Below are positions 1 through 40,533 of a DNA stretch of 64,000 bases, piece by piece. The DNA is from a virus. The stretch is taken from the IMG/VR virus record IMGVR_UViG_3300035670_000058, positions 1 to 64,000 of that record; one strand, 5' to 3'. The notes beneath the pieces are model-generated. The model ran no database searches and had not been told where the DNA came from. It was given only the letters and a program-made list of their open reading frames with translations. How positions within the stretch are numbered: position 1 is the stretch's first letter; every line of letters begins with the position of its first letter. The position numbers were made by a program, and so were the translations under genes.

Positions 1-2
1 GT

Positions 3-9928: not shown

Positions 9929-11603
9929 TTTTAAACTAGCAAAGTCCTCAGTATATGAAGGACCCGCTCCATTTGGGGAGGGCTACGGTACATTCATGAT
10001 GCCCTATGCCAATTCTGCGGACTCCTATTACAGAGCACTTGGCTTGACACCAGAGAAACTGGTTGTCCCTAAAGAATACCATGAAGTATTACAACTTGTA
10101 TATGATTTCTACCAGCGTGGCGGTATCATCGCCACCGTTGTCAACAGGCTAGCGGAGTTGTCTGTTACCGAGATTCGGAACGGGCAGCGCAAAACCACTG
10201 ACGAGCAGAACGCTTACTTTGATGCCGTTCTGCATAGAACCCCCTCGCGTTTGATGCGCTTCTTGCGAACATGCGCGCTGGAGTATTATTTGTCAGGTCT
10301 AGTGATTCCCAAGATTGAATATGAAAGTGTTATGGGCCGTGATCTGCACCCAAAGCTTACTCCAACTAAAGAATATATAGTTCCCAAGTTTGACCTATAT
10401 CCACCCAATCTGGTGTGGGTTGTATGGGCTGGTTGGGGGGAGAAGGAATACTACCTCAAAATACCTGAGGCCGATGTACGGTTGATACGCAACGGTGGAA
10501 GTCGAGTCAAAGAGCAGCAATTGAAGTATCAGACATATCAGCAGTTTTATCCATCTCTGGTTGAAACTGTGAAGAATGGAGCAGATAAAATACTTCTCAA
10601 GGATATTGATCCAATTTTGCGCAAAGAGATTTCATACTCTCCCTATCCCGTCCCATATCTTTACAACGTCTTGGAGCCATTGATATTCAAGCAGCAACTA
10701 CGAAGAATGGACTTTGCAGTAGCCTCTAGAGTCATCAATGCTATTCTGCTGGTAAAGGAAGGTAATGATAACTACCCCATAACTGAGGAGACTCGCGCTA
10801 ACCTCGATGAATTAAAGGTTCAGATATTGGCACGATCAAATAATCCAAAGTTAATGGAGCGGCTATTCATACTATTCTCTAACCATACGACTACGTTAGA
10901 GTGGATTACTCCTGATGTCTCAGCGATGCTGGATCAGGACAAGTATCGACAGGCTAATGAGGAATTATCAGAAGGCTTGGGATTCGCACGTATTTTGGTA
11001 ACAGGTGAAAGCAGAGGGACAGGAACAGCGTCGGAGGTTTCTACTTGGGCCATTCAACCAATGATGGAAGAATTGCGGTCTAATCTTAAAGAATGGATTA
11101 CAACATTATACGAAGAACTTTCTGAGTTGAATAGATTTAGAAACACTCCAGCACCAATGTTCAAGCCCATACGTCTTCAGGATTTTGTCAAGACTGCCGC
11201 AGTATTCTCACAGTTGTTTACCGAAGGAAATCTTTCACGGACAACACGCAACGAGTTGGTGGGAACTGATTTTGAAACAGAAGTTGAACTTATGCGCGAT
11301 GAGTTGGAATTGATGGACGGACTACCTCAATTCCCAGCCATGCCTTACAGCCCACAGCCAGCCATAACAGGCGGGCCGGGTGCAACGGGCAAACCGGGAA
11401 GACCGTTGGGAAGTCAAAACGTTCCTATAAATAATAGGAACACGGGCGTAAAGCCGCGTAATCAAAAGCCTTTATCAAAGGTTAAGCAAGCAGACATGAC
11501 TGATGATGAATTAGTTGAAGCATTGATTGCCCTTGCAGAAGAGCGGGGCATAATTATCGATACAAAGATTATCGAGGAAACACCGGATTTGATGAATGAA
11601 TAA
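9918..11603 (+). CDS. portal protein
   Basis: Follows TerL; 561 aa; helical portal-like character; Pro/Gly-rich C-terminal tail with GRP. Confidence 0.8.
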   Translation: MADNFKLAKSSVYEGPAPFGEGYGTFMMPYANSADSYYRALGLTPEKLVVPKEYHEVLQLVYDFYQRGGIIATVVNRLAELSVTEIRNGQRKTTDEQNAYFDAVLHRTPSRLMRFLRTCALEYYLSGLVIPKIEYESVMGRDLHPKLTPTKEYIVPKFDLYPPNLVWVVWAGWGEKEYYLKIPEADVRLIRNGGSRVKEQQLKYQTYQQFYPSLVETVKNGADKILLKDIDPILRKEISYSPYPVPYLYNVLEPLIFKQQLRRMDFAVASRVINAILLVKEGNDNYPITEETRANLDELKVQILARSNNPKLMERLFILFSNHTTTLEWITPDVSAMLDQDKYRQANEELSEGLGFARILVTGESRGTGTASEVSTWAIQPMMEELRSNLKEWITTLYEELSELNRFRNTPAPMFKPIRLQDFVKTAAVFSQLFTEGNLSRTTRNELVGTDFETEVELMRDELELMDGLPQFPAMPYSPQPAITGGPGATGKPGRPLGSQNVPINNRNTGVKPRNQKPLSKVKQADMTDDELVEALIALAEERGIIIDTKIIEETPDLMNE

Positions 11604-11862
11604 TTACAAGATAGTAGCAGTTTTATGGGAAGATCATATTTATGTTGACAGGGATAAGATTCCTAGAACCCCCGATGAAGAGATAATGACTACACTCTCG
11701 GTCGGAATTCTTTACCAAGAGACTCCAAAAGCAATCACCCTTGTCAACTCCGTTGAACGGTATGATGATCGTGATGATGCTTCCTATACAATTATTTTGA
11801 GATCAACAATCCAAGCGATCCAAGAATATGGAGAGATAGAATTATATAGTTTAAGAGAGTGA
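11596..11862 (+). CDS. small hypothetical protein (W.D...GIL motif, Sm-like fold possible)
   Basis: VLWEDH...SVGILYQE; coupled to the portal gene. Confidence 0.6.
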   Translation: MNNYKIVAVLWEDHIYVDRDKIPRTPDEEIMTTLSVGILYQETPKAITLVNSVERYDDRDDASYTIILRSTIQAIQEYGEIELYSLRE

Positions 11863-11868
11863 TTAAAT

Positions 11869-12192
11869 ATGAGTGATACTATTACTGTCGCACTAATTAG
11901 TGCATTAGGCGCTCTAATCGTTTCATTCATTGGTGTATTTGTCGCTAAAACATATAAGATTGGTCCCAACCAGGATAAACTCGTGCAGACATTAAAGGAT
12001 TTATTAGCGATTCAGGATAAAAAAATTGAAGAACTTCAAAATATGATAGAGCAAAATCAGAAAGAGATTCTTGATAGCCGCAATAAGATTGTTCAATTAA
12101 CAACTGAACTGGAAAGTTTAAAAGATTTAACTGTGAGTCAAGCCCTATTGATTACCGACTTGCAGCGACAGTTGGGTGGTAAGCGTGGATGA
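11869..12192 (+). CDS. membrane protein with N-terminal TM helix and coiled coil (holin-like)
   Basis: ITVALISALGALIVSFIGVFVA followed by a heptad-rich region. Confidence 0.6.
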   Translation: MSDTITVALISALGALIVSFIGVFVAKTYKIGPNQDKLVQTLKDLLAIQDKKIEELQNMIEQNQKEILDSRNKIVQLTTELESLKDLTVSQALLITDLQRQLGGKRG

Positions 12193-12484
12193 TTTTATAT
12201 ATGTTGTACACTTAGAAACAATAATTCCAGCACTGTTTGCTGGATTTCTTACAGGGGTAACACTCTTTACTACGTTTAAACTTAGTGTGCAGCATTACTA
12301 TTTGCTGGCACTGGTACAACTGATCTTTGGAGTAGTCGGGATAACCACCCGCTATCTTGAGAATGCTGAGTTTGGGCGCTTTGCGGGTGTAATCTTTTTA
12401 TACTACATTTTCCTAGGTAGCGCGATTTTAGGACAGAAATTATACGCTAAAATAAAAACAGCGCCCTATTTATCAAATAAATGA
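12176..12484 (+). CDS. 3-TM membrane protein
   Basis: Three hydrophobic segments and a basic C-terminus. Confidence 0.6.
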   Translation: MVSVDDFIYVVHLETIIPALFAGFLTGVTLFTTFKLSVQHYYLLALVQLIFGVVGITTRYLENAEFGRFAGVIFLYYIFLGSAILGQKLYAKIKTAPYLSNK

Positions 12485-12495
12485 AGTTTCTATAA

Positions 12496-13662
12496 ATGGA
12501 AGTAGAACCCGAAGGGGGTGAATTGATGGATAAAGCACAGTTTGAATCAACTATCGCAGAAATTATAGATGTTCCTACCGATGATTTTGAGCATCCCTTT
12601 TTAACAAAAGTCAAGTTTATTTTTACGGACGATAGAGGGAATGCAAACAAGCAGGGAATCGAATTAGAAGATTTTGATTCGGTTGCGAAGAGTTCTATTA
12701 ATATGCCCCTAAAGATTCGCTACACCCATGCCGGTGCAGGAGGTCATGACTTTTCAATTCCGATTGGACATATAACTCGTATGTATCAGGAAACAACTGA
12801 GGCTGGGGTAGCAGAATTAATTGGTGAGGGTGTTCTTTACAAAGAAGAATATCCCGATGAGGTTGCCTATCTAAAGCAAACTCATGAAGCGGGCAAGGCT
12901 CCCGGTATTTCTTGGGAGTTGTCTTATCAGGATTCTGTCACCAAAGCAGGAGTTGACTGGCTTAAAGGTGTTGTAACCAGAGCCGCAACTTTCGTCAAGT
13001 TTCCTGCATACGGTAACCGCACAGGACTATTGGCAATAGCGCAGAGTAATATCTACTCTATCACTGAAAGTCAGATGATGGATACCGAGTTTATGGATGA
13101 GTTGAAGGAAATCGTAGATGAATTAAACGCATTAGTACAGGGAAAGCCAGAAACCGAAGACGAGGAAGATCACCAGAATGATCTCCTAATGGGTGGCGCA
13201 TCTCAAAACACGGGAGGTAACGAAGTGGACGAATTACAGAAGGCTCAAGCAGAGTTGGAGGCTGCGCTTGCCAAGGTTGCAGAATTAACTGCACAACTTG
13301 ACACAGCACAGACAACAATTACTGACTTGACAACAGAGAATGAGGGATACAAGCGAAATGCTCTCGTTGCAGAGCGAACCGCGAAGATCGTAGAAGCCGG
13401 AATCAAGATTGAGTCCGATCAGGAGAAGTTGGCGCAGAAGCAGGAACTATGGTTGGCTATGTCACCAGAAATTTTTGAGGCTTACGTCACAGATTTGGCA
13501 GAGGCTTCAAAGCCTACACAGACTGCTCCTAAGGATAAGGCCGCTGCTTCTAGCAAGGAAGGTCTACCAAAGTTTACTGCGGTAGCAGGACAGGAGAAGA
13601 CACTAGACGATTTGAAGGCAGTCGGAAGACTAGCTTCAAGAGGAATAGCAGCAGATATATAA
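12496..13662 (+). CDS. prohead protease fused to a C-terminal scaffold
   Basis: GHDFSIPIGHI and PGISWEL (His/Ser), PAY motif; C-terminal coiled coil; lies between portal and capsid. Start may be 12523/12526. Confidence 0.8.
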   Translation: MEVEPEGGELMDKAQFESTIAEIIDVPTDDFEHPFLTKVKFIFTDDRGNANKQGIELEDFDSVAKSSINMPLKIRYTHAGAGGHDFSIPIGHITRMYQETTEAGVAELIGEGVLYKEEYPDEVAYLKQTHEAGKAPGISWELSYQDSVTKAGVDWLKGVVTRAATFVKFPAYGNRTGLLAIAQSNIYSITESQMMDTEFMDELKEIVDELNALVQGKPETEDEEDHQNDLLMGGASQNTGGNEVDELQKAQAELEAALAKVAELTAQLDTAQTTITDLTTENEGYKRNALVAERTAKIVEAGIKIESDQEKLAQKQELWLAMSPEIFEAYVTDLAEASKPTQTAPKDKAAASSKEGLPKFTAVAGQEKTLDDLKAVGRLASRGIAADI

Positions 13663-13683
13663 AAAAGGAGGTAGGCACGTAGC

Positions 13684-14322
13684 ATGGCTGACGCAATTAA
13701 CACTGGTAATCCAGTTGATACTACACAATTCATCGTAAACAAGTACGATGATATTGATGGCGCTCGACTAAACCAAGACACAGGAAGAGGAAGATTTGCA
13801 TTCCGAGATACTAACGGACGCATGACACTTCCCCGAACACTTACAGAGGCCAAGTTGGCAGTATTCCCTGTCGATTGGCCCAAGCCACTTAACCCCGGTC
13901 CTTATTTCACAGGACCTGGCCTTAATGGCACAACAGTAAACGTTTGGAATGATGGATCACTTGGCGCACAGGAAACTGATTTTGAACTCGATCCAGATGC
14001 TGCTTATGTAGCAAACTGGCCGACAGGCATAACTCAGTACGATATTCCTTTGATGTTCTATGGACTTCCAATGGCATCAGGAAACAAGGCTCTTGTATTT
14101 GACGGTGGAACATTCACCTTCGGATCAGGCGCATACGCTGGCGTTTCATCTGACTATAACATCGGATCAAAGGTTTATGCAGATTACGCTTTAGGCAACG
14201 AAGGAAAGTTGACAGTTTCTGGAGCAGTAGCAGGAAACACCGTAGTCGGTGTTGTTGTTGACAAGGGAACATTCGGAATAAACACAATCACTGTTAAGCT
14301 CAAGGGCTTAGCAGCACTTTAA
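13684..14322 (+). CDS. capsid decoration/cement protein
   Basis: RBS AAGGAGGT; lies before the major capsid gene; C-terminal GxxVY...GKLT...VGVV pattern. Confidence 0.65.
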   Translation: MADAINTGNPVDTTQFIVNKYDDIDGARLNQDTGRGRFAFRDTNGRMTLPRTLTEAKLAVFPVDWPKPLNPGPYFTGPGLNGTTVNVWNDGSLGAQETDFELDPDAAYVANWPTGITQYDIPLMFYGLPMASGNKALVFDGGTFTFGSGAYAGVSSDYNIGSKVYADYALGNEGKLTVSGAVAGNTVVGVVVDKGTFGINTITVKLKGLAAL

Positions 14323-16388: not shown

Positions 16389-17045
16389 ATGGTTGATGTA
16401 ACAATTATAGTCCCCACATATTTTGGGGGCAACATGCTATATAATTGTATAGACAGCATACACAAGGCAGTGACAAACCCCAAGATACTAGTATATAAAA
16501 ATGACATCGGTTGGCTTAAAGCATGCAATGAGGCCATGCAGTCAGTGACTGGCGATGTCATTTTGCTTAACGATGATACATTTGTGTTAACAGATATTAT
16601 TGCAGAGATGAGTAATCTGGCCTACTCCAAAGATGAGATAGGTATCGTGGGTGGAAAAGCCCTGTCTGCTGCAAATCCAGACACAATTATCAATTACGGT
16701 ATCTATGTGGGAGTGGATGGCAATACTGCTCACAAACATTTCGGTAGACCACGCGATTCTGTAGGAATAGAAACACAGAAGGCTGTCGAGGGTTCATGTA
16801 TCTATATCAAACGAGCGGTGCTTGATGAGGTTGGATACTTTGATGAAGCCTTTGGAATGGGCTACCGCGAGGAGGTTGATCACCAGTTTCGCGCAAGAGA
16901 AGCGGGTTGGAAGGTTGTCTCCTGTCCAACCGCTGAGTATATACATTATGTATCTCAGACACATAGCAAAGTTGGAATCAACAACGATAAGTACACATAT
17001 TTTATGGAAAAATGGGGAAAGAAATTAAAGTTAGGGATTGTATAG
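16389..17045 (+). CDS. glycosyltransferase family 2 (GT-A)
   Basis: VTIIVPTY, ACNEAM, VILLNDDT, VGYFDEAF..GYREEVD. Confidence 0.92.
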   Translation: MVDVTIIVPTYFGGNMLYNCIDSIHKAVTNPKILVYKNDIGWLKACNEAMQSVTGDVILLNDDTFVLTDIIAEMSNLAYSKDEIGIVGGKALSAANPDTIINYGIYVGVDGNTAHKHFGRPRDSVGIETQKAVEGSCIYIKRAVLDEVGYFDEAFGMGYREEVDHQFRAREAGWKVVSCPTAEYIHYVSQTHSKVGINNDKYTYFMEKWGKKLKLGIV

Positions 17046-17057
17046 AAGGAGAAGGAA

Positions 17058-18035
17058 ATGGCAACTAGAGCAATTGGTGAGATGGCTATTTTTTATGGCG
17101 ACAAGCAGAACAACGGCGAGTACGACAACGGAGTCTGGATGGATATACTTGATATCCCGTACATTCAGAACATTGAAGAAGCCGGGTTGTATAAAACTAT
17201 TATCAGGACGCTTTGGCTAGAATCGTCCGGTTGGTCCAAGACTATCCGTGAGAAGTATCCTCATGTTGTTCAGATTGGTCTACATGACCATCCCCTCTCT
17301 ACGCATATATCAAGACTGCCAGCCGATAGACAGTACGCATACTTGGCTGATTTAGAGAATTTAGATGGCGTTATGGTCCATCGTGAAGAGGAACGGCAAT
17401 TTTATCAAGTGACTCTTCCATCAAAGCCTGTAGAGCGTGTTGGCCTACCATTCCCTGTAGATAGTTATGAGAAAAGATATGGACATCTACGGAATTCCGA
17501 GAAGGAATACATTGGTTTAGGTGTGGGTGCGGCAGACAATGATCGCAACTTTATCTCTAACTTGATCGTATTTCAATCATTAAAATTAAGATACCCCGAC
17601 CTTCAAGGTGTGTTTCTATCTATCCCACATCAGTTAATGCCATACGTGATGTACATGGCAGAAAAATTCGACGGGGTTTATATCCACCAGCGGACAAATA
17701 TGAATGAATATCTTGAGATTCTTAACCGCTGTAAGTTTGTAATTAGTCTGCCTGATAGAAACACACCGGGTCGGCTCCAAGGAGAAGCAGCCTTCTTCGA
17801 TATCCCAGTGGTTGGTTCAAGCCGGTTGGAACTCCAAGAGGAGTTATTCCCTGACTTGAGCGTTGAACCGTTCGCATTAGAGGATGCCCTAGATTGCTCT
17901 CTGAGGCTTCTAGAAGACCCTGAGTGGGGCAGAAAGATCGCGGAGGACGCTCACAGCCTCTTAATAAAAGAATATAACTATGATAAGAGTCGTGAGAGAT
18001 TTAATGATTTGATGAAGAAAATAAAGGGTGAGTAA
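17058..18035 (+). CDS. GT-B-like glycosyltransferase
   Basis: TPGRLQGEAAFFDIPVVGS motif; C-terminal LLEDPEW..KIAEDAH helix. Confidence 0.75.
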   Translation: MATRAIGEMAIFYGDKQNNGEYDNGVWMDILDIPYIQNIEEAGLYKTIIRTLWLESSGWSKTIREKYPHVVQIGLHDHPLSTHISRLPADRQYAYLADLENLDGVMVHREEERQFYQVTLPSKPVERVGLPFPVDSYEKRYGHLRNSEKEYIGLGVGAADNDRNFISNLIVFQSLKLRYPDLQGVFLSIPHQLMPYVMYMAEKFDGVYIHQRTNMNEYLEILNRCKFVISLPDRNTPGRLQGEAAFFDIPVVGSSRLELQEELFPDLSVEPFALEDALDCSLRLLEDPEWGRKIAEDAHSLLIKEYNYDKSRERFNDLMKKIKGE

Positions 18036-18037
18036 CA

Positions 18038-18511
18038 TTGCCGGAAATTATCAGAGTTAATCGGGAGTGGATAAAGAGACAAATTGATTCTGCCCGAGTA
18101 AGTATAGGTCGGAATGTTTCGTTCTATACAACGAGCAGAACCGACTGTACGCTTTGTCTGGCTAGCGGTTACTACAATGAAACACTAGACTCAACATTCT
18201 ATACAGGATGCCCAATATGCTCAGGGAATTTCTACATCGATGCTGTTACCCAACACGTTGTCCTTGCAAGAGTCCACTGGACGAACGATGAAGCCGCAAC
18301 GGCTACACCGGGCGGCAAGTATTACATCGGTGACGCGACTGTAACTATAGACCCGTCGTATTTAGACGTGGCAGAAGCCACACAAAATGAGACAGGCACA
18401 GTCGTCGTTGATGGGCACGATATGCAGATAACAAAAATCATCCCGCAGGGCGCACCTGAACCTAATAGGTATCGGGTGGTTTTAAAGAACCAAGGAGAGC
18501 GCCCATCTTAA
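18038..18511 (+). CDS. head-tail stopper/neck protein with Zn ribbon
   Basis: CTLC...CPIC.G; GDATVTI..VVDG beta pattern; position. Confidence 0.6.
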   Translation: MPEIIRVNREWIKRQIDSARVSIGRNVSFYTTSRTDCTLCLASGYYNETLDSTFYTGCPICSGNFYIDAVTQHVVLARVHWTNDEAATATPGGKYYIGDATVTIDPSYLDVAEATQNETGTVVVDGHDMQITKIIPQGAPEPNRYRVVLKNQGERPS

Positions 18512-27457: not shown

Positions 27458-28222
27458 ATGGGATTAGGACCAACACCCTCGTACTTAGCTAAGTATAATT
27501 CATATACTCTTCCCGGCTATGTACAACAGGAATCTTTTGATTCCAGTATGCGTATTGGTGACCATTACGCTCCATACGCTGATGGCTCCAACTCCGAAAT
27601 ATTGGGCCTCCAAAATAAAATGCTCTCCCTTACTCTAAAAGTATGGGAGCAAGATTATGCCACCTGTAAAGAGCAAGTCCAGCAAGCAGCCACAATGCTT
27701 CGCAGTAAACGTCAAGGATTTGCTCCATTGTATGTGCAGTATTCTGATAAGCACTACGAAGCATTGGTATCCTCAGTAAAGGTGGACAAAACCGCTGGGG
27801 ATACCCCACGAATGCTGGAGTATCAGGTTGACTTCCAGTGCAAGCCTTGGCTCATCAGCGACTCTACCAATACGCTTACAGGTTCAAGTCTAGCCCGCGT
27901 AAGCACAAATCTTGTCACCACAGGCAGGACAATTACTGATGGTGGCTGGACCCCTACAACGATCACAGTAACTGGCAGTGATATTACCATCTCTGGATAT
28001 ACATTAGCAGGAGATTTTGCTGGATTCATCAGCGTATCTGGATCAGTCACAAATCTTGTCATCGACAGTGAGGGTTTCTCTTCTACTGAAGGAACCACTA
28101 ACAGGAATGCTTACATGCGCTACGCGGATTATCGTGTATGGGTAGGGCCAGAAGAGACAACGTTCGTTGTCAGTGGAGCAACAGATATAACAATAGATTA
28201 CCACGATAGATGGTATATATAG
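27458..28222 (+). CDS. distal tail protein (Dit)
   Basis: Directly after TMP; PYADG, VDFQCKPW, LVIDSE, C-terminal DRW. Confidence 0.8.
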   Translation: MGLGPTPSYLAKYNSYTLPGYVQQESFDSSMRIGDHYAPYADGSNSEILGLQNKMLSLTLKVWEQDYATCKEQVQQAATMLRSKRQGFAPLYVQYSDKHYEALVSSVKVDKTAGDTPRMLEYQVDFQCKPWLISDSTNTLTGSSLARVSTNLVTTGRTITDGGWTPTTITVTGSDITISGYTLAGDFAGFISVSGSVTNLVIDSEGFSSTEGTTNRNAYMRYADYRVWVGPEETTFVVSGATDITIDYHDRWYI

Positions 28223-28235
28223 GAGGTGAGGTATC

Positions 28236-29303
28236 ATGGCTGGTGGAGATTTAATTTTTGCAGACGGCTTTGATTCTGGATCATTAACTGGGTGGGTGGA
28301 TGCTCTAGATGTATGGATCGCTGCGGGTTCTTCCAGAATATCGGGTAGTGGTAGTGGTCTATATATCAGTCGTACAAGTACATATTTTACTGCTAAGGCT
28401 GCGATCTATACTGATATTTTTGACTACACAAGTGAGTTTTTATTTGGATTTGCGTTTAAATTTGGAACCGTTTTGGATGAGATTGCCCTTATACATTTCA
28501 TGGATGGAGCAACTAGAAATGATTGGGATACTGCTCAACTCTCTCTCTATATAAATAACACTGGAAAACTTGCATTTGGTAGATTCCACGGTGATTTTAC
28601 CATAACTGTTTTAGCAACTGGAACTAGAACAGTTTCAGCAGGAGCATGGCATTATGTCGAAGGTAAAGTAAAAATTCACGCATCTACTGGGTATGTTGAA
28701 ATCAAATTAGATGGTATGGAAGAGATTTCTATGACAACTAGCCTTGATACTACAAATACTGCTGCTAATGGTGCAAGTGTTATTGCTCTAGGGATGTCAG
28801 ATTCAACTGGTGGAACTACTGTATCAATAGATGATTTTTATCTCTTTGATAATGCAGGAAATGGTATGTCCTATATGGGAGATATTCGTGTCTTGGACCT
28901 AGTGCCCACTTCTGATGGGGCGTCTTCTGATTTTACCCCCTCAACAGGCGTGGATAATTATGCAACAGTTGATGAATTACCCCCTGTAGATAGCGATTAT
29001 GTTTATTCAAATGTTATTGGTCACAAAGATACATACGGACTCCAGAACCTACCGGCAAATGCTGCCGCTGTCTTTGCAGTCATGTATGTTACCAGATCAT
29101 TTAAAACAGACGCCGGGGCAAGAACATTACGAAATGTTATGAGACAATCAGGCGTAGATTATGAACGGGCTGATAGTGATACGGCTATTACGCTAAATGC
29201 CTCAACAACATTTTATTCAGAGACTGCTAATCCTGCAACAACCGTTGCTTATACTGTCAGCGATATCAATGATAACGAATTTGGCTTCAAGTTACAAGCA
29301 TAA
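28236..29303 (+). CDS. minor tail protein with ConA/LamG-like lectin domain
   Basis: FADGFDSG; WHYVEGKV...VEIKLDG; IDDFY. Confidence 0.7.
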   Translation: MAGGDLIFADGFDSGSLTGWVDALDVWIAAGSSRISGSGSGLYISRTSTYFTAKAAIYTDIFDYTSEFLFGFAFKFGTVLDEIALIHFMDGATRNDWDTAQLSLYINNTGKLAFGRFHGDFTITVLATGTRTVSAGAWHYVEGKVKIHASTGYVEIKLDGMEEISMTTSLDTTNTAANGASVIALGMSDSTGGTTVSIDDFYLFDNAGNGMSYMGDIRVLDLVPTSDGASSDFTPSTGVDNYATVDELPPVDSDYVYSNVIGHKDTYGLQNLPANAAAVFAVMYVTRSFKTDAGARTLRNVMRQSGVDYERADSDTAITLNASTTFYSETANPATTVAYTVSDINDNEFGFKLQA

Positions 29304-29357
29304 CTGTAATTATTAATACAATAATAATTTCAATACAATGAAGGTGGTGAGGATGTA

Positions 29358-32300
29358 ATGGCTGTAGCCCACGACGCAGTTAGTAGTTATGGCGCTAGTA
29401 TCGCCAACGTAGGCTCATTCCAGTGGACACATACGCCATCGGGAACACCAAAAGGTGCAATTGTCTTTGTTAGCGGGCAAAACTTAACAATGGCTGCGAT
29501 AGTCGATACCGCTGTGACCTACGGCGGCGTGTCGATGACACAGATTCCATACACAGCCTTCGCCACCTCGACTGAACGTGGGTCCGTAACCGCTTATTTT
29601 CTTGCCAACCCCCCATCTGGGGCACAGACAGTTGTTGTTACACGAACTAACAACAATGTAACTACAAATGGTGTGTGTTGTACTGTTACAGCAGATAATG
29701 ATGTTGTGGTGCCTACTTCGTTGGTTAGAACTGTTGTTGGTGCTGCAACGCCCTTAACTGGGGCAAGTTCAACTGGCAGTAGTACAGCCTCTAGTTGGTC
29801 TTCTCTTACAGATATTGGTGACGGATCGCCGGGAACAAACTCTCAGCGCTATCTGTCGGTTTTTTGCGGCTTAGGCGTACCCCCGACTGCGGGTACAAAC
29901 GCTACAGTGGCATACTCCCACGATTTCGGAGCCTTGAGTTGGGTAGTCCTTCGGGAGACAACGCCATCGCAGGGCAATGTGACATTGGGTACCTCATCTA
30001 TCACGGATGACCTTGCTGCGCTAGGGCTTGCTGTTAAGGAGAAGGGACTTGTTAGTAGTGTAGCCCAAGCAAATGCCCAAATCACCCAGACAACTCAAGT
30101 CTTAGCCTATGCTCAAGCAGAAGCCGTGATGCTTGGGGCTTCTATAAACCATGCCTTTGCACAGGCAGAAGCCTCCATTTTATCTCTTTATATTATTCAG
30201 GTATCTGCTCAGGCAGAGAGTAGTATTAAGAGTACGTATATAGGTGCAGCACAGGCTGGCGCTCATACTCTAGGCTACTATACAGGAACAGGACAAGCAC
30301 AGGCATCTATTAAGACTGTATATCAGCAATATAGCCAGTCTAGTGCCTATATCTATATACGAAGTTACTCTAGTTCGCAAGCACAGGCAATTATTACCTA
30401 TAAAAATAGTAGTTATGCTCAAAGTGCTTCTTGGATCAAAGGAACAGAAAATGCTGTTGCACAAGCCCAAACAAAATTAATAGGTTTAGGCTTACAATCT
30501 GCACAAGCACTGGCTTGGATGGCTGGTTCATATATAGTTGTATCTCAAGCACAGGCTTTTATTCAAAATGGTTTGGCAGTTTATCTTCGTGGTACAGCCA
30601 ACCATAATACGGCAAGTAATTCTTTCACATTTGCTTCACCCTCTAACTTCTCAGCCGATGGATTGGCTATTATTGTTATAGCCTATGGTAATAATGGAAC
30701 GGCTGGAGCCGACCCCAACTGCGTTGTTACAGACTCCTTAGGTAACACATGGACTGCACGTCATGTGACCGTAAATGATCCAAGTATTGTCGCTGGTGTT
30801 GGTACAGTTCTTAGGATCGTTACAACTGAGCAGAATGCTGGAATCATTACTACAGGTACAAATATAACATTGACCTTTGGTAATGGTGTACAGGCTAAAG
30901 CCCTTGCTCTCTGGGAAATCAAATCAAATAGGGGGATTCCAAGATACTATAGTACAGGAACAGGATCAACTGGTAACTCTACTACCCCATCTGTAACATC
31001 TAGTACAATAACTGTTGGGGATGTTATCATTGGTGGTGTTTCTATCAAGCGTGGAGAGGCACCGGCAACAGTTGATACTGACACGACAAACGGTTTGTGG
31101 TCAGCAGAGCAATCTACTTATGCTGGAGATAAGTCTGTTGTTTCTCAGGTTAAGTTACAGACTTCAAGTGACTCTACGCAAACATATAATCCTACGTATA
31201 CAAATGCTGGCTATTGGGCTGCTGGTTGGATTTCTATCCGCTCCCTGCCTTATCAGAAATATGCACAAGCCAAAGCACATATTATATCTAGGGAAGTTTC
31301 AAGACCAGCACAAGCAGAAGCAACAGTAATTCAAGGAACACGCTATAGCACTCATGCACAGGCTCAGGGATCAATCATCCCTAACTTTAAGCAGTTTGCT
31401 CAGGCAAAGACCTCTATCAAGACATCTTATACAGCATCTGCTCAAGCCGCAGCAAAGATGTCTGTGTATGTTCAACATGCACAGGTTCAAGGATCAGTCC
31501 TTACTTATTATACGACATATGCACAAAGCGCTGCTGAAATCTCCTCCAAGATAAAAGTAAAATTTGCTCAAGCGCAAGCCTTGATGGAATATTCTGCTGT
31601 TTCCGCATTTGGAATCAGAGTCCTTGAAACACAAACATTCCCACAAGTAAACGTTACGGCACTTTCTCTTAGAATCTTAACAACACGTTCTACGTTCAGT
31701 TATGCAAACGTAACAGCAAAAATACAAAACCTTACCAACACTACTCAAATACATGCTCAGGCAAATGCCCATATAAAAATGGAAGCGCTGGTTGGGCTAG
31801 CACAAGCGCAAGCATGGTTACCCGTCTTTGCAGTTTCAAATATTTATATTAGAACGCTGTTTACAACATCTGATCCAGATGTGCGCGTAACTGCCGCTGG
31901 ATTAAGAGTTCTTGTCAGTAGGGGTTCTATTGAAACTGCCCAAGCACAAGCGTTAATAGACTCTGGGATTAAAATTAAGGTTGCTCAGGCACATGTTTCA
32001 ATCTACCGTACTCCGCATACCACATATTCAGAATTTGCACAAAGTCAGGCAATTATCAGGGCCAAGTATACTGCAAGAGCCAACGTAAGAGCATCGATCA
32101 AAAGAACTTCAGTCAAACACTCTCAAGCAAATGCGCTTATTTTCCATCCACAAGGTTTTGGACAAGCACGGGCAACCGTCAAGAAGGGCGGTACTGGTGT
32201 ATTCGCTCAAGCCAGTGCTTATATGCGTCTATATGTTGGCTATGCTCAGTCACGGGCTTGGATAACAACAGGGATACTCAAGAGCGCTCAAGCAACTACT

Positions 32301-33959
32301 TATATACGACTTCCTGCTGGATACGCACTAGCACGAACAAGCATAAAAACAACATATCTTGGACATGCACAAGCCACAGGAGCGGTGCTGTTCTCTGGAA
32401 TGTTTGCTCAAGCAAACGCTGACATTAAGCAAAAATATACCCAATCTGCACAAGCAAATGCGCTTATCAATTCTTATATTAAAGTTCAATTTGCTCAAGC
32501 ACAAGCGGTTGTTTTCCAGATTATCATAACAAGTTTTGAATTAAGGGTTCTTGAGGTTGGAACGCTTCCAACCGCTGGAGTTTCTGCGATCTTCCTGCGA
32601 ACACTTGTAAACAGGTCTACCTATAGAAGCGCACAATCTGCTGCATTGATCAGCAATATTTCAAAAGTTGCTTCTGGGCAGGGTGTGGGTTCTATAAGAA
32701 CACATTATGCGCAATCAGGCCAATCGATGGCCTATATAAGTGCTTATGGAGTAAGTTACTTTGCTCAGGCTGAAGCAAGTATCCTAAAACTTGCTGGATA
32801 TGGACAGGCACAAGCCTATTTACGTGCTTTTGATGTGGGGGCATTTGCCCAAGCACTTGCATATTCACTTGGTATGACATTTGTATACGGACAGGCACAT
32901 GTGTATATACGTCCCTTGACGGGTTCTGCACAAGCAAACGCACAGATAAAATCCACCTCTACACCGCACGCAAATACACAGGCAATGATTGAGATTCAAC
33001 GTAGAGGCTATGCACAAACAGAAGCATGGATATTGGACACTATCTCTATCTATTCTGCTACGGCACAAGCGCAGATTATCTATCGTATGTGGTCATCAGC
33101 ACAAGCAATGACAGAAATCACACGCTATAAGTTTGGATGGGCTAATGCTCTTGCTCGTATTGCTGGTCAGGAGCATGGCAATGCTCAGGCTCTCATAAAA
33201 GCACCCTCTCTTGGACTAGCTCAAGTCGCTGCCTTTATTAAGAACAAATATACAACAATTATTTATAATAACTACCTGTTGCCGGGATATTTACAATCTA
33301 AATCTATGAATGATTCTACTAGAATTAAAATATCTGGAGTACCATACTTCGATGGGCAGGATTCTGAATATATAGGCTTGGAGAATAAGACAATCTCATT
33401 GAGGTTCAAATTAGTGGGAGATACACTAGATAGTATGAAAACTCAAGCTACAACGGCTTCTACGATGGTGTGGAGTGCAAGAACTCAATCTAAATTGTAT
33501 ATTCATGCATTGGATAAATATTATCTTGCAGTTCCAAAATCATTCAAGATGGAGCCTTCCGCTTCTGAGCGTACACTGGATTATAGCGTTGACTTCAACG
33601 CCCAGCCTTGGCTTTATAGCGACGTTATAAATACGATTACAGGAACAACCTCTTTAGTAACGACAGGACGTACCATCGTTGATGGTGTTGCTACTCCAGC
33701 AGTAGTGATTATCTCAGGAACAGATGTCACTGTTTCAGGATATACCTCAGATGGCTCATGTACAGGATATTTTGCTACCTCTGGTAGTGTTTCTAACTTG
33801 ATTATCAATTCAGAGGAGTATTCAGCAACAATAAACGGAGTTAACAGAAACGATATTATGAGAAATCTAGACTATCAAATCTATGTGGGCCAGGGAATTA
33901 CGTACTTCGATATAACAGGAGCCACTAGTGCAGAAATTTCTTGGAGGAATAGGTGGTAA
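29358..33959 (+). CDS. giant tail fibre: two globular domains, AQA repeats and a C-terminal Dit paralogue domain
   Basis: AQAQA repeats; the last ~230 aa align by eye with 27458..28222. Confidence 0.8.
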   Translation: MAVAHDAVSSYGASIANVGSFQWTHTPSGTPKGAIVFVSGQNLTMAAIVDTAVTYGGVSMTQIPYTAFATSTERGSVTAYFLANPPSGAQTVVVTRTNNNVTTNGVCCTVTADNDVVVPTSLVRTVVGAATPLTGASSTGSSTASSWSSLTDIGDGSPGTNSQRYLSVFCGLGVPPTAGTNATVAYSHDFGALSWVVLRETTPSQGNVTLGTSSITDDLAALGLAVKEKGLVSSVAQANAQITQTTQVLAYAQAEAVMLGASINHAFAQAEASILSLYIIQVSAQAESSIKSTYIGAAQAGAHTLGYYTGTGQAQASIKTVYQQYSQSSAYIYIRSYSSSQAQAIITYKNSSYAQSASWIKGTENAVAQAQTKLIGLGLQSAQALAWMAGSYIVVSQAQAFIQNGLAVYLRGTANHNTASNSFTFASPSNFSADGLAIIVIAYGNNGTAGADPNCVVTDSLGNTWTARHVTVNDPSIVAGVGTVLRIVTTEQNAGIITTGTNITLTFGNGVQAKALALWEIKSNRGIPRYYSTGTGSTGNSTTPSVTSSTITVGDVIIGGVSIKRGEAPATVDTDTTNGLWSAEQSTYAGDKSVVSQVKLQTSSDSTQTYNPTYTNAGYWAAGWISIRSLPYQKYAQAKAHIISREVSRPAQAEATVIQGTRYSTHAQAQGSIIPNFKQFAQAKTSIKTSYTASAQAAAKMSVYVQHAQVQGSVLTYYTTYAQSAAEISSKIKVKFAQAQALMEYSAVSAFGIRVLETQTFPQVNVTALSLRILTTRSTFSYANVTAKIQNLTNTTQIHAQANAHIKMEALVGLAQAQAWLPVFAVSNIYIRTLFTTSDPDVRVTAAGLRVLVSRGSIETAQAQALIDSGIKIKVAQAHVSIYRTPHTTYSEFAQSQAIIRAKYTARANVRASIKRTSVKHSQANALIFHPQGFGQARATVKKGGTGVFAQASAYMRLYVGYAQSRAWITTGILKSAQATTYIRLPAGYALARTSIKTTYLGHAQATGAVLFSGMFAQANADIKQKYTQSAQANALINSYIKVQFAQAQAVVFQIIITSFELRVLEVGTLPTAGVSAIFLRTLVNRSTYRSAQSAALISNISKVASGQGVGSIRTHYAQSGQSMAYISAYGVSYFAQAEASILKLAGYGQAQAYLRAFDVGAFAQALAYSLGMTFVYGQAHVYIRPLTGSAQANAQIKSTSTPHANTQAMIEIQRRGYAQTEAWILDTISIYSATAQAQIIYRMWSSAQAMTEITRYKFGWANALARIAGQEHGNAQALIKAPSLGLAQVAAFIKNKYTTIIYNNYLLPGYLQSKSMNDSTRIKISGVPYFDGQDSEYIGLENKTISLRFKLVGDTLDSMKTQATTASTMVWSARTQSKLYIHALDKYYLAVPKSFKMEPSASERTLDYSVDFNAQPWLYSDVINTITGTTSLVTTGRTIVDGVATPAVVIISGTDVTVSGYTSDGSCTGYFATSGSVSNLIINSEEYSATINGVNRNDIMRNLDYQIYVGQGITYFDITGATSAEISWRNRW

Positions 33960-36900: not shown

Positions 36901-37199
36901 CAAGGGAAGCATTCGGTCGAACAATTACCAGGCAGAATGACTTTAGGGATATTGCCAGTTATAGTCAACTCATAGGTTTGTCTAGAATGGAATTGAAGAG
37001 GCGAAACAAGCCAGAACGGAGAATAACCGTTACACACAGGGCAGAGGAACTTGATCTTGAACGCGGAGATTCCTTTATTCTATGGACAAAGAAATCAGGA
37101 AATCTAAGAGTTAGAATTGAGCATATCTCACGAAAGGAATCATCATCCTCAGGTACAACGTTTGATATGGAGTGTGTGGAATGGCCTCAGATCAGTTAA
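33963..37199 (+). CDS. Tal/baseplate hub-like protein with discoidin and CBM-like insertions
   Basis: Tal-like N- and C-terminal parts (ATRLLAYGS, LERGD); F5/8C-like YW...IDFG...RYLKIEI. Confidence 0.7.
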   Translation: MLQIRLTDSAGNNPIILEKADNKIYNKALSSADEGISFEYPKNDSKSAYLNPYDSASYTRLWEVWNTRTNKRLNFGPITTISDGPEAYQVDGDGRSALLNDYYTSIKTFYGRIDYIVEEMRYENVAVSPSSSVFIHNQDEDDADMNAVLGMWAYPSNTFLGEDRYYNISKYSKDFIIDEQTGYIPLGKIEPPRTFSTTSEYWTGAGPFDAVLIDFGAEYDISRLKLLFPWWGGPQRATNRTYDFKLVGYPEGSWKTIYNRGLGDPIEYLDSYYLLGGVSRIVTTPERPYEFYVGTTASGLGTQINSFNILGGYQSPPSIRYLKIEIQDVHAWFGTDNDAKAAHEGYPYQCEPSYRPGDDSYFGNKLGLMTYKNKNGVLKERKISDEVIKPSNDCNASVVELGAYKEIIPKNTIKPLALQRIDNNSMQIEYSHYPRGSEMTKITIDDKHYRKFEPGTFFRKFKISWTGADNTYYKFYKKDCDQCYPDGFSFGVVDDDNSLIYSSDNSSGTDINVKGKQYTKHIRTRGSNTSEVTWVDAWKGITDPMSWGGTYSYSEYQNDYFVVSFRGESLKWYATIPSDKTGSRVKIEIRHRLNSEYNRSSSSVDQLVEDIQWALDHSEPLPPIEIVDGNPLFWSDWTVLEADYQLPNNVSSSVVYEIPYNAGILESETSYQIKVTLLTDGYCSIDSFEGYWSASFTEYNEDSSRIVLSKPDVFKQIYNKKFTAGSMYKWNKPGAAASMQFEGDRIIIQSAKGRQHGKLTLILLTYEDGINEYDPGTENHVFIPTSKGGDPSDGSLTVNLSTGKRGQEFANFIIFDSNDIFSDEGGLPWGKYMMKIIYTPSEKYTASKTDNGSSSFQYRCRDCDGETDGKTTSIYRYVYLDAIGVHERVGVSVNFEQKPHLEIIKSMAEAIQVEWDAAESGLIFEPRLGIDKDIALRESENTLVSYQITNDLKKVATRLLAYGSSIDGLDLFTITEDKKTREAFGRTITRQNDFRDIASYSQLIGLSRMELKRRNKPERRITVTHRAEELDLERGDSFILWTKKSGNLRVRIEHISRKESSSSGTTFDMECVEWPQIS

Positions 37200-38224
37200 A
37201 TGAAGTTGGAAAATACATCAAAAAAAGTAGAACAGATGCAGATTATGCACTGAAAAAGGTACGCCCCAATCGTCCAACGGTAGAGCGCACACGGGATATC
37301 TTTGATATAGACATCCCATTCAGTATGCAATTTGAAGTCAAAGACACCCAGAAGAGCATTTCCCTTGATCTGGAATTTAATAAACCTCCACCGCAAAGCA
37401 ATTGTTTTTCTGATATTGACTGCCCGCGAGGTACGTGTGAGACATTCACACTTTCTGCTGGAGAACATGAGATAACATTAGCATATGGTATTCACCCTAT
37501 TAATGAGTTATTTCAAGTTTATGTCAATGGACAACCTTGGGCTACATCACAGTACGCTATACTTTCAAAAGGTGGCCTAGACACACCAGCAACAGTATTA
37601 GTTGCAAATCTTCCTCTAGCCTCTAATACAGTAGTTATCTGCTATATGATCTACTGTCTTGGTGAACTTTATACCGGTCAGGCATTTGGTGCTTTGCTTA
37701 GAAGTAATCATACTGAATGGGAATGGAATGGTGATCAACCACCGGCAGGATGGTATCCAGAACCAGCAATTGGTCCAGTTCATTATGAGGGTAATACTAT
37801 CGTTATTGATCAATCAATATATGCACGGGTTGAGGCATATGCCAACTACGCTCTTGCTCCCGGTCGATGTACAACAGACTGGCCTCCCGGTGGGTGTGAC
37901 TGCGGGAGAGGGGTAATCATTAATGTTAGTCTTGATCCATTCGTAAGCGATACTCTTAGATGGCCGTGTGGTTTATACTATGTTTCTGGTGATTGGCATT
38001 ATGATCAATATATGTATCTTCCAGCAGGAACACGTATTAGCGGCTCTTTTAGTATGCCAAGTCCACCAGAGGTTGGGGGTTGGGGATGGCAGTGGTGGGA
38101 AGTCAATGAAAGTTGGGTCAGGGTAGGAAGACTTCGAACGTACTTTCCAAATGAGGGCGGCTCTAAAGGTGTATGGGGGTATTGGGACGGAGCAGAGGCT
38201 TGTACACAAGGGGATTGTGTTTAA
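37181..38224 (+). CDS. tail tip/receptor-binding protein, Cys/Trp-rich
   Basis: Follows Tal; N-terminus paralogous to 38225..38764. Confidence 0.6.
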   Translation: MASDQLNEVGKYIKKSRTDADYALKKVRPNRPTVERTRDIFDIDIPFSMQFEVKDTQKSISLDLEFNKPPPQSNCFSDIDCPRGTCETFTLSAGEHEITLAYGIHPINELFQVYVNGQPWATSQYAILSKGGLDTPATVLVANLPLASNTVVICYMIYCLGELYTGQAFGALLRSNHTEWEWNGDQPPAGWYPEPAIGPVHYEGNTIVIDQSIYARVEAYANYALAPGRCTTDWPPGGCDCGRGVIINVSLDPFVSDTLRWPCGLYYVSGDWHYDQYMYLPAGTRISGSFSMPSPPEVGGWGWQWWEVNESWVRVGRLRTYFPNEGGSKGVWGYWDGAEACTQGDCV

Positions 38225-38764
38225 ATGGATACTGTGAACGAACTAGGTAAATCTCTTAATAAAATAGCCAAAAACGCTAAACAAGCCGTTGAAAAGCAGT
38301 CGGCTGAATACCCCATGACTGAAACAGTTCGTGATATCTTTGACAGCATTGTCGCATATAGGGCACACTTTTTTGTTCCAAGAAAAGGAATGAGTATTAC
38401 GACTGATCTTCAATTTGAATTACCGCCCCCATTGGGATCGGGTAATTGTTGTGGAGATTGTTTCTGTACTGCTTGTGAGGTATATTCAACATCTGATTTT
38501 GCTGACTACGTGGGGTATACTTCATATCCCTATTTACCGGGGACATTGAGAATAGTTGATTCCCATAAACCACTTAATTCAGCAGTAAATGAAACTGATC
38601 CCGCTTCTGGTATCTTTACCTTAGGGTATGATCCAGATACTTCAAGTAGTTCTTATGTTTTATATGCTTGTTATATCTATCAATATGATGGACATTGTAC
38701 TACAAATCCTACGGAACCAACAGAAGTTTTAATTTATGGTCAAGGAATGGCACAAATTTCATAA
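38225..38764 (+). CDS. tail tip protein, Cys-rich, paralogue of 37181..38224
   Basis: Shared NE.GK...E..RDIFD...DL.F..PPP..NC. Confidence 0.6.
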   Translation: MDTVNELGKSLNKIAKNAKQAVEKQSAEYPMTETVRDIFDSIVAYRAHFFVPRKGMSITTDLQFELPPPLGSGNCCGDCFCTACEVYSTSDFADYVGYTSYPYLPGTLRIVDSHKPLNSAVNETDPASGIFTLGYDPDTSSSSYVLYACYIYQYDGHCTTNPTEPTEVLIYGQGMAQIS

Positions 38765-39315: not shown

Positions 39316-40533
39316 GTGAAGATTTTCTATGTGGGGGATAGCCCCACAGTACCGACAGGATTTGGACAGGTGAGCAAGAATTTGCTCAGGCGTTTTATGG
39401 AACGGGGATACGAAGTCGAGGTTATGGGCATCAATAGTTTTGGTGAACCATATGACCGAGAAGAATTCCCCTATAATATCTGGCCGTGTGACAAGGGACC
39501 AATAGAGATGCTGTATGGCTACGCCAAAATGTGGCATATCGCCTCAAGGGTGAAGCCTGACATCATCTTCTTTTTGAATGATCCTTGGGTGATTGAACGC
39601 TACCTAGATCACAAGCCAGAAAGTTTTGCTGATGCCCATGTGAAATATATTGCATACTATCCGATTGACTCAGGACCGCTCAAGCCGCACTGGGCTAAGA
39701 TGCTTACTGAGAAGTTTGATGCACAGGTATGCTACTCTAATTTTGCTGAGCGCGTCATCATTGATGCCAACGAAGGAAAGAGGCCGGATAATCTGTACCA
39801 GATTTATCACGGTGTGGACACCAAGACATTCTTTCCTGTGGTGCAGGGACTCGCCCGTGCCAAGTTGGGACTTCCCCAAGATGATTTCATTGTAGGCATG
39901 GTGGCCCGCAACCAGTACAGAAAGCGCTTTGATATTTTGATAAAGGCTTTTGCTGAGTTTACAAAGAATAAAAAGAATGTACGCCTTTATCTGCACACAG
40001 CACTAGCCGATGTAGGGTTTGATATCCTTGATATTGCCAGACAATTCAACCTAGATGATAAACTTATTCTCACCGAGGATATGCGATTACCTGAGGGTGT
40101 ACCTGACTGGCAGTTGAATCTGATCTACAACACGTTTGATGTGAATGTTCTTCTAAGTTTAGGTGATGGATTTGGACTACCTGTAGCAGAGTCTATGGCC
40201 GTAGGATGTCCTCAACTTGTATCGGATCACTCCTGTTTGAAGGAGTTAGTAGACGGGCATGGTGGGTTAACTGTCAAGACTGCAACTTGGCTGCTCAATG
40301 TTTCAGGTATCAACACATGGGGTGGTGTACCTGATGTGGATGATGCTATTGCAAAGTTAGAATTACTCTACGATAATAGAGCTCTCCGTGTAAAGATGGC
40401 CGAGGATGCTTATCATTTCATTACGCAGGATAAGTTCAATTGGGATCATATTGCAGACCAATTTGATGAGGTCATCCGCAAGACGGCTCATATACTTCCC
40501 CGTACTTTGGCGGGGGTAGGAGCGGGTTACTAA
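39316..40533 (+). CDS. glycosyltransferase family 4 (GT-B)
   Basis: GDSPTVPTGFG, HGVD, VARNQYRK, GDGFGLPVAESMAVG. Confidence 0.92.
   Translation: MKIFYVGDSPTVPTGFGQVSKNLLRRFMERGYEVEVMGINSFGEPYDREEFPYNIWPCDKGPIEMLYGYAKMWHIASRVKPDIIFFLNDPWVIERYLDHKPESFADAHVKYIAYYPIDSGPLKPHWAKMLTEKFDAQVCYSNFAERVIIDANEGKRPDNLYQIYHGVDTKTFFPVVQGLARAKLGLPQDDFIVGMVARNQYRKRFDILIKAFAEFTKNKKNVRLYLHTALADVGFDILDIARQFNLDDKLILTEDMRLPEGVPDWQLNLIYNTFDVNVLLSLGDGFGLPVAESMAVGCPQLVSDHSCLKELVDGHGGLTVKTATWLLNVSGINTWGGVPDVDDAIAKLELLYDNRALRVKMAEDAYHFITQDKFNWDHIADQFDEVIRKTAHILPRTLAGVGAGY

Follow-up and report, generated by a model that had tools for sequence, protein, structure and literature searches.

A second Dit module, fused to a long N-terminal extension, is conserved in the tail operon of uncultured siphophages

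Introduction

The distal tail protein (Dit) is a conserved hub for the host-recognition devices of siphophages. It forms a hexameric ring with a channel of ~40 Å that binds the Tal trimer and the last ring of the tube, and the belt hairpin of each subunit embraces its neighbour. Classical Dits, such as SPP1 gp19.1 (PDB 2x8k), TP901-1 ORF46, 80alpha gp58 and the Dit of the monocin tip, fold into two domains, of which one is a tube-like ring domain bearing the belt hairpin and the other a galectin-like domain at the periphery; they measure about 250 amino acids (aa) and are encoded directly 3' of the tape measure gene, tmp (PMC7291167). The variations on this hub described so far consist of carbohydrate-binding modules (CBMs) placed within its galectin-like domain and of separate fibres docked on its outside. 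Here we analyse the first 64 kb (hereafter, the window) of the 114,680-bp IMG/VR record IMGVR_UViG_3300035670_000058, which belongs to an uncultured long-tailed phage (siphophage). In this window a stand-alone Dit (Dit1) is accompanied by a second Dit module (Dit2), which forms the C-terminus of a 1533-aa protein encoded in the same tail operon.

The closest described systems differ from this locus in distinct ways. In evolved Dits, known from Lactobacillus phage J-1, from S. thermophilus and lactococcal 936 phages and from mycobacteriophage Bxb1 (a 670-aa Dit, PDB 9d93), the Dit likewise acts as a platform, in that case for CBMs that aid adsorption (PMC7291167). These modules sit within galectin-domain loops of the sole Dit, whereas the galectin domain of Dit2 is unexpanded and aligns 1:1 with that of Dit1, and all the extra mass lies N-terminal to the ring domain. 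The extensions, or arms, of Dit2-type proteins measure between 200 and more than 3400 aa, and the phage retains a plain Dit as well. Stacking of Dit rings has a precedent: the ring domain of Dit shares the stackable fold of tube proteins and Hcp (PMC7291167), and the baseplate of lactococcal phage p2, as of the 936 phages, contains two Dit hexamers placed back to back (PMC6669499; PMC13232314; PMC7698478). Both rings of p2 are made from one gene, whereas here two paralogous genes have different architectures and fall into separate clades.

The distal tail of phage T5 combines a tube-like ring of p140, a collar of p132 and lateral pb1 fibres, with an extra tube-fold ring near the tip at the level of fibre attachment. 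Ring, collar and trimeric fibre are separate proteins in T5; at the present locus one chain comprises the arm, which is predicted to be monomeric, and a ring module as its C-terminus. An earlier note on this DNA, made by a model from the sequence alone, had proposed that a duplicated Dit anchors a repeat fibre of ~1300 aa and had called this a baseplate design that it did not recognise. In agreement with the latter point, we found in the open-access literature on Dits and on curli-like phage fibres no Dit variant with this layout and no Dit paralogue anchoring a long N-terminal arm, a silence that is weak evidence.

Results

The long tail protein ends in a complete Dit paralogue

BLASTP places residues 1-252 of Dit1 and residues 1285-1533 of the long protein in a single co-linear alignment of 258 columns with 15 gap positions (42% identity, 61% positives, E 6e-61). 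The proposal that the last ~230 aa of the 1533-aa protein are co-linear with the stand-alone Dit is thereby borne out, and the motifs on which it had been based (YNSYTLPGY/YNNYLLPGY, the PY.DG..SE.GL.NK hairpin, KPWL, LVTTGRTI.DG and a terminal RW) all fall inside the alignment. Only the start of the module has to be moved, from about 33264 (residue 1303) to between about residues 1285 and 1297 (33210-33246). When all 114,680 bp of the record were searched in six frames, exactly two copies of the module were detected. Their codon-aligned DNA is 51% identical, which points to an old duplication visible at the protein level and to neither a recent repeat nor an assembly artefact. We also considered an internal start that would yield a free Dit2 and rejected it, as neither a Met nor a start-like context lies close to residue 1285.

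Family searches did not name either copy. Pfam and PHROGs hold no family for Dit1 or the long protein, and searches of PDB sequences with the Dit1 profile, the long protein and the Tal-position protein (1078 aa, encoded next to the long protein) and its profile returned nothing meaningful. The only Pfam signal was a sub-threshold match to DNA_circ_N, which fits the kinship between the ring domains of Dit and Mu gp43 that is found by fold comparison.

We describe the fold of both copies from AlphaFold2 (AF2) models, one of Dit1 (alignment of 47 homologues, pLDDT 82) and one of the long protein from residue 900 to 1533 (alignment of 27 rows, pLDDT 75.6). The nine best structural matches of the Dit1 model are all solved Dits (SPP1 gp19.1, TP901-1, monocin tip, Douge, 80alpha, NF5, p2 and Bxb1), with VIA Z scores of 15.5 to 11.6 and 212-230 aligned residues across both domains; the top Foldseek matches are also all Dits (E 1e-11 to 1e-8). 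Against the SPP1 Dit 2x8k, 216 of 243 residues align at Z 15.5 with a root mean square deviation (rmsd) of 3.6 Å, and the assignment of 27458..28222 as a Dit, made in the earlier note, is upheld by these fold matches. The Dit2 part of the second model (model residues 398-634, the last 237) matches the SPP1 Dit with a VIA Z of 16.5 and a target-normalised Foldseek TM score of 0.67-0.69. The galectin-like domain is included in both cases, since matches to the Dits of SPP1, TP901-1, p2 and 80alpha span residues 7-253 of Dit1 and 398-634 of the Dit2 model. Several homologues of the long protein additionally show sub-threshold matches to PF22768 (SPP1_Dit C-domain) at their C-termini (E 3e-4 to 4e-3).

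The ring domain of Dit1 (model residues 5-137) also resembles myophage tube initiators and tube proteins (lambda gpV, SPP1 gp17.1 and Hcp5) at Z 7-11, compared to Z 12-15.5 for whole Dits, and the Dit2 model gives ring-domain matches of the same kind. Matches to tube proteins that are restricted to the ring domain are what the definition of Dit predicts (PMC7291167). According to the models, both copies are thus true two-domain Dit folds. Dit1 is like classical Dits also in its size and in its place directly 3' of tmp. Both differ from classical Dits in having only 9-15% identity to them and no Pfam Sipho_tail match, and the phage as a whole differs in possessing a second full copy with an N-terminal extension of ~1290 aa. 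In the monomer model, residues 31-50 of Dit1 are extended with a pLDDT below 50; the motif that is most conserved in both paralogues, PY.DG..SEY.GL.NK, lies in this segment, which is consistent with a belt hairpin.

The fusion is conserved among uncultured phages

A profile scan of IMG/VR yielded ten related loci (L003-L012). In eight of these (L003-L006, L008-L011), the gene for the tape measure protein (TMP) is followed by a ~250-aa Dit1, zero to three genes encoding 276-574 aa, a long open reading frame (ORF) of 1000-2787 aa and a homologue of the 1078-aa protein, and the last ~240 residues of the long ORF are 40-50% identical to Dit1. Locus L007 has an ORF of 2446 aa that is ended by the contig edge. 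A 12-kb contig (L013) binned to the metagenome-assembled genome (MAG) of an uncultured member of Flavobacteriaceae has the fused layout likewise, which is a weak hint that Flavobacteriaceae are the hosts. The search for the same gene pair in other phages, which the earlier note had suggested, hence recovers it in nine of the ten IMG/VR loci, if L007 is counted, and in the MAG contig.

The most distant locus, L012 (IMGVR_UViG_3300037307_000061, 42% identity), has the canonical triad of TMP, one Dit and a counterpart of the 1078-aa protein. Judged by its gene content, it is a comparator for the state before the duplication, or after a loss. In its regions 10001-14034 and 17395-18498, the gene for a 276-aa Dit lies directly before the hub homologue, a long Dit2-bearing gene is absent, and the homologue of a 355-aa accessory protein, which neighbours Dit1 in the window, is placed further downstream.

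To extend the survey, a Dit2 profile was compared with 1.84 billion representative proteins, and the 108 matches at E <= 1e-30 were re-scored. A complete module stands at the extreme C-terminus of long proteins (434-3747 aa, median 1133) in 73 clusters, 68 of which begin with M. The module is internal to a long protein in four other clusters and stand-alone in six, and nine long proteins contain the ring domain only. These nine (P0219-P0221, P0225, P0226, P0228, P0231, P0232 and P0195; 608-3047 aa) match positions ~3-137 of the profile, their matches stop at the domain border (profile 131-137) and five of the nine proteins end there, where truncation at contig ends is possible. This pattern points to the ring domain as the essential anchor and to an apparent variant consisting of an arm plus the ring domain only.

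A sequencing or assembly error that fused a fibre gene to a separate second dit, or a chance similarity, could in principle create such an arrangement. The reading frame is open throughout, the similarity has an E value of 6e-61, there is no internal Met near the junction, and the same single ORF recurs in ten independent contigs and in the 73 representative clusters with their preponderance of M starts. The conservation of the fusion refutes the artefact, to which we assign a negligible probability, and the fusion can be taken as one real gene.

The duplication is old and both copies are retained

In a maximum-likelihood tree, one branch with support 99/99 separates the 18 stand-alone modules (Dit1) from the 15 fused ones (Dit2). 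The two groups largely mirror each other in topology, but terminal branches are two to three times longer in Dit2 than in Dit1. Separate clades with congruent topologies imply that both copies were co-inherited and that both were kept, which indicates one old duplication with joint retention of its products.

Constraint differs between the copies. Over nine genomes, the mean pairwise identity of the ring domain is 0.64 within Dit1, 0.39 within Dit2 and 0.42 between Dit1 and Dit2; the corresponding values for the galectin-like domain are 0.54, 0.50 and 0.48. The tighter constraint on Dit1 is expected of a canonical ring that touches the tube, the tape measure and the hub. In the same genomes, both clades conserve the identical residue at 49 columns, among them those of YN..LPGY, PY.DG..SEY.GL.NK, KPWL and the terminal RW, and no column is conserved but different between the clades. 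This shared constraint is consistent with both paralogues still making Dit-type rings.

One metagenomic protein, P0125 (447 aa), stands apart from this division. Its C-terminal module falls within the Dit1 clade and not with Dit2 (57% identical to Dit1), and the protein has an N-terminal extension of ~200 aa. Either a small fusion arose independently here or the gene was called wrongly.

Repeats and globular domains alternate in the N-terminal arm

Upstream of Dit2, the long protein consists of two globular domains and two repeat tracts (Table 1). The repeats have a period of 13-16 residues and a consensus of roughly [YF]-A-Q-A-x-A-x-I-K-x-T-Y-x-x. The second tract contains three copies of a 47-60-aa element (residues 737-800, 815-861 and 1046-1092) that are 41-47% identical. 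The most N-terminal globular domain is homologous only to residues ~135-323 of P0126 and P0130 among the loci compared, and is replaced in the closest relative, L003; it has no Pfam name, and the ESM Atlas returns unnamed viral clusters only. The second globular domain has no homologue among the compared loci and, like the first, no assignment in Pfam or the Atlas.

In the AF2 model of residues 900-1533, the repeats form regular strands of 9-10 residues joined by turns of 4-5 residues, with a period of 14 and a pLDDT of mostly 70-85. A VIA search of 48,161 chains with model residues 1-357 retrieved as best match the Pontibacter curli protein CsgA (8c50_A, Z 24.4, 278 residues, rmsd 7.8 Å), followed by the single-chain beta-helical adhesins Vag8, RsaA, EtpA, HMW1 and UpaB (Z 14-17, rmsd 3.4-4.8 Å). 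The repeats are accordingly predicted to form a monomeric, curli-like two-sheet beta-solenoid stalk. In such a stalk each 14-aa unit would supply one strand and one arc, two units would make one coil, and we infer that the alternating Ala residues pack in a narrow core. With ~830 repeat residues and ~0.48 nm per 28-aa coil, the stalk would be ~14 nm long, and the arm with its globular domains perhaps ~20 nm, far shorter than a trimeric fibre of equal mass. If the stalk is single-chain, the symmetry problem of placing trimers on a hexamer disappears.

These results modify the picture of a ~1300-aa repeat fibre drawn in the earlier note. Its repeats are real, while its uniformity is lost to the two globular domains that separate the repeat tracts, and the "very long" fibre gives way, under the monomeric solenoid model, to a compact arm of roughly 20 nm. 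Two other readings of the 14-aa repeat are a coiled coil, with Y/F and I in the a positions of the heptad and A and T in the d positions, and a beta-spiral of three chains; in view of the AF2 strands and the beta-solenoid match, which come from a monomer model, we set both aside as less probable.

The predicted stalk shares with CsgA of Pontibacter korlensis (8c50), EtpA, HMW1 and Vag8 the stacked strand-turn repeats rich in Gln and small residues. The likeness to CsgA lies in the predicted fold only: identity is 2%, no Pfam Curlin_rpt match was obtained at E <= 0.1 and the repeat is of the 14-aa AQAxAxI type. Moreover, the stalk is a segment within a virion protein and soluble, whereas CsgA is a secreted amyloid subunit.

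The same 14-aa repeat recurs, in more regular form, in a second giant protein of this phage. This protein of 1190 aa (window 1-2522, running on across the record junction from genome position ~113503) has ~60 units of [YF]AQAQAxIKxTYQx with autocorrelation lags of 14, 28 and 42, two globular inserts and, in place of a Dit module, a C-terminal repeat of the LxLxD type. Its ORF continues across the record's 127-bp "direct terminal repeat", which therefore resembles the overlap left by assembling a circular or permuted genome more than it does physical ends.

Lectin-type domains and distal exchange in the arms of relatives

Eight of ten scanned homologous long proteins carry LamG_3 (up to E 2e-54), PA14, F5/8 type C, NedA-like galactose-binding or DUF7402 domains. 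Variation along the arm is best seen in L003, the closest relative, whose Dit1 is 82% and whose hub is 76% identical to those of the window. The C-terminal ~825 residues of the two long proteins are 50-82% identical, with identity rising towards Dit2, and the N-terminal ~700 residues are unrelated save for repeat matches. An anchor that stays conserved while the distal part is exchanged is a classic mark of receptor-binding proteins. Based on the LamG_3, PA14 and F5/8 type C domains of the homologues, the arm is probably a modular lectin-type adhesin that binds sugars.

The tail operon and the Tal-position protein

The late operon of the window lies on the + strand and contains terminase, portal, glycosyltransferase and tail genes (Table 1). 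The tape measure gene is kept and syntenic in all relatives. The Dit1 gene begins 16 nt past tmp; the Dit2-bearing gene lies two genes beyond Dit1 and ends 4 nt short of the Tal-position gene. With respect to the canonical position of dit, 3' of tmp and 5' of tal, Dit1 fits, and Dit2 fits only as regards tal. Smaller genes, a GT4-type glycosyltransferase gene and an endolysin-like gene lie 3' of the Tal-position gene.

Table 1. Coordinates of the tail genes and of the segments of the long protein in the window.
Feature	Size or residues	Position	Strand	Basis or description
Tape measure protein (TMP)	1656 aa	22472..27442	+	Pfam PhageMin_Tail PF10145, E 1.8e-8, above gathering score
Dit1, stand-alone distal tail protein	254 aa	27458..28222	+	N-terminal ring domain (~135 aa) and C-terminal galectin-like domain; AF2 and fold matches
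Accessory tail protein, phrog_2448	355 aa	28236..29303	+	PHROGs E 3e-43; conserved C-terminal half, variable N-terminal half
Long protein, C-terminus is Dit2	1533 aa	29358..33959	+	Single ORF, open throughout
Distal globular beta-rich domain, candidate receptor-binding tip	residues 1-235	29358..30062	+	No 14-aa repeats
First repeat tract, ~twelve 14-16-aa AQAxAxI repeats	residues 236-404	30063..30569	+	Motif spacing; autocorrelation lags 14, 16, 28
Second globular domain	residues 405-635	30570..31262	+	240-aa gap in repeat pattern
Second repeat tract, ~45 repeats, predicted beta-solenoid stalk	residues 636-1296	31263..33245	+	Repeat mapping and AF2
Dit2, complete two-domain paralogue	residues ~1297-1533 and stop	33246..33959	+	42% identity to Dit1; fold match
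Tal-position protein, presumed tail-tip hub	1078 aa	33963..37199	+	Position after long gene; weak family matches

The Tal-position gene directly follows the long gene in every relative, and the single Dit gene in L012, with protein identities of 33-76%. The 1078-aa protein of the window has no Pfam or PDB sequence match. Weak family matches were obtained with eight homologues: Prophage_tail PF06605 (E 0.13) in one and F5_F8_type_C_2 in three, together with an ESM Atlas score of 0.85 to Prophage_tail clusters and, in one of the eight, the PHROGs category "tail protein with endopeptidase activity" (E 0.045). The N- and C-terminal parts of this protein are strongly conserved, and the weak F5_F8_type_C_2 match, of the NedA-like galactose-binding kind, lies mid-protein in the three homologues concerned. 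From this arrangement, the protein may be an "evolved Tal".

A tblastn search of 50,697 GenBank phages gave no match to Dit1, to the Tal-position protein or to a 404-aa conserved tail protein, a putative tube protein, so no cultured relative could be identified among them, and the lineage is known only from metagenomes.

Discussion

The reading that we favour, with a probability of roughly 0.55, is that Dit2 forms a second hexamer coaxial with the Dit1 ring, probably between Dit1 and the hub, and that this hexamer carries six single-chain lectin arms. Dit1 would then be the canonical ring after the tape measure, and six Dit2 modules would assemble on the tail axis between the Dit1 ring and a trimeric hub formed by the 1078-aa Tal-position protein. 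From each Dit2 subunit the ~1290 residues N-terminal to it would extend outward as an arm of one chain, a stalk of 14-aa repeats that is broken up and tipped by globular domains, the place where relatives have their lectin-type modules. By binding glycans of the host surface, the arms would concentrate and orient the tail tip before the hub engages, and host range would be retuned by swaps of the distal half on an unchanged Dit2 anchor. The stoichiometry and the position of the ring, like the binding function, are what we infer from the models and comparisons given above. A coaxial Dit2 hexamer is the most economical arrangement given the stackable ring fold, the double ring of p2, the single Dit of L012 and the ring-only anchors, and the gene order suggests a place between Dit1 and the hub. 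L012, with TMP, one Dit and a hub, shows that a single Dit suffices as the bridge from tape measure to hub, which would make Dit2 an add-on.

Several points weigh against this reading. The formation, stoichiometry and order of the rings rest on single-chain models, and in the model only ~5 residues lie between the last solenoid strand and the first Dit strand, so that the steric fit with a closed ring is a presumption. The ring domain of Dit2 is far less conserved than that of Dit1 (0.39 versus 0.64), and this could mean that it has fewer partners than an axial ring. The stalk model derives from a shallow alignment and a monomer prediction, includes three low-confidence or disordered segments and has its best match at an rmsd of 7.8 Å. 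In addition, the long protein of the window shows no Pfam lectin match, and the 1078-aa protein is presumed to be the Tal or hub from its position and its weak matches.

The same data allow other assemblies to be weighed. Dit1 and Dit2 could alternate in one Dit1(3)Dit2(3) ring, each specialised for one of the non-equivalent positions that face a three-fold Tal, which would give three arms, in keeping with the symmetry of the hub. Subfunctionalisation of this kind is plausible because, in the tips solved, the two Dit subunits contacted by each Tal subunit are bound in non-equivalent ways (PMC13232314). The paralogues are co-inherited, and with identical belt-hairpin and core motifs and no conserved-but-different column their lateral interfaces could have stayed compatible. 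We nevertheless regard an alternating ring as unlikely: L012 combines the same Tal family with a single Dit, so a homohexamer suffices, and the much faster evolution of the Dit2 ring domain is unexpected for subunits that make equivalent lateral contacts. The paralogous tube-fold rings known from tails, such as those of T4 gp48 and gp54, are stacked as separate homomeric rings, which also counts against it, and no heteromeric Dit ring was found in the open-access literature. If both modules instead competed for one ring position, tails would be stochastic mixtures or fall into two particle types, with the number of arms set by relative expression. Full-length homology and common core motifs leave room for such competition, as sequence fixes no stoichiometry; two clean clades, representing sixteen hundred or more columns of independent divergence, and the asymmetric conservation speak for distinct, fixed roles and make it very improbable.

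Dit2 might also lie outside the tube axis altogether, as a peripheral adaptor that docks the arm laterally on the Dit1 ring, on Tal or on the last tube ring through a collar or through belt or strand exchange. The relaxed constraint on the Dit2 ring domain would be explained by such a role, small accessory genes in variable number adjoin the long gene, and anchors that bind the outside of the Dit ring, for example of the BppU or p132 type, are common (PMC7291167). Yet the whole two-domain Dit, including the belt-hairpin motif, is kept in at least 73 diverged clusters, and the retention of the ring domain alone in nine clusters would be hard to explain were ring formation irrelevant. We know of no precedent for a Dit fold serving as a lateral adaptor and consider this arrangement doubtful, less probable than an alternating ring though more so than free competition for one position.

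A second Dit paralogue that anchors a long modular arm would be an added way to build a baseplate. It would also provide a genomic signature for receptor-binding proteins in uncultured phages, namely a long ORF ending in a Dit module between dit and tal, and a natural scaffold whose distal lectin half is exchangeable on a fixed anchor. The AQAxAxI repeat, present in two giant proteins of this phage, would represent an unusual rigid virion appendage made without trimerisation if it is indeed a monomeric solenoid. Whether the locus belongs to a widespread clade of uncultured phages, possibly on Flavobacteriaceae, that build lateral adhesin arms into the tail axis by joining a second Dit ring, or an alternating one that settles the six-fold to three-fold mismatch with the hub, to curli-like solenoid stalks and exchangeable lectin tips is, in our estimate, an even bet; the attachment principle and the fibre fold would then be new to solved siphophages.

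Additional observations on neighbouring genes

The 355-aa accessory protein encoded between Dit1 and the long protein has no Pfam match, nor do the small accessory proteins. It is 37-43% identical to its L003 homologue in the N-terminal half and 70-79% identical in the C-terminal half, the same polarity as in the long protein, with one half variable and the other conserved.

Three glycosyltransferase genes, GT2-like, GT1-like and GT4-like, are located within the late structural operon (16389-18035 and 39316-40533). Their products could glycosylate virion proteins or the host surface.

Two proteins encoded downstream of the Tal-position gene, of 350 aa (37172-38224) and 179 aa (38225-38764), have homologous N-terminal segments of ~90 aa with 36% identity. 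The same segment also starts proteins of 626, 547, 455 and 146 aa in the relatives, which suggests a common anchor domain with alternative distal parts.

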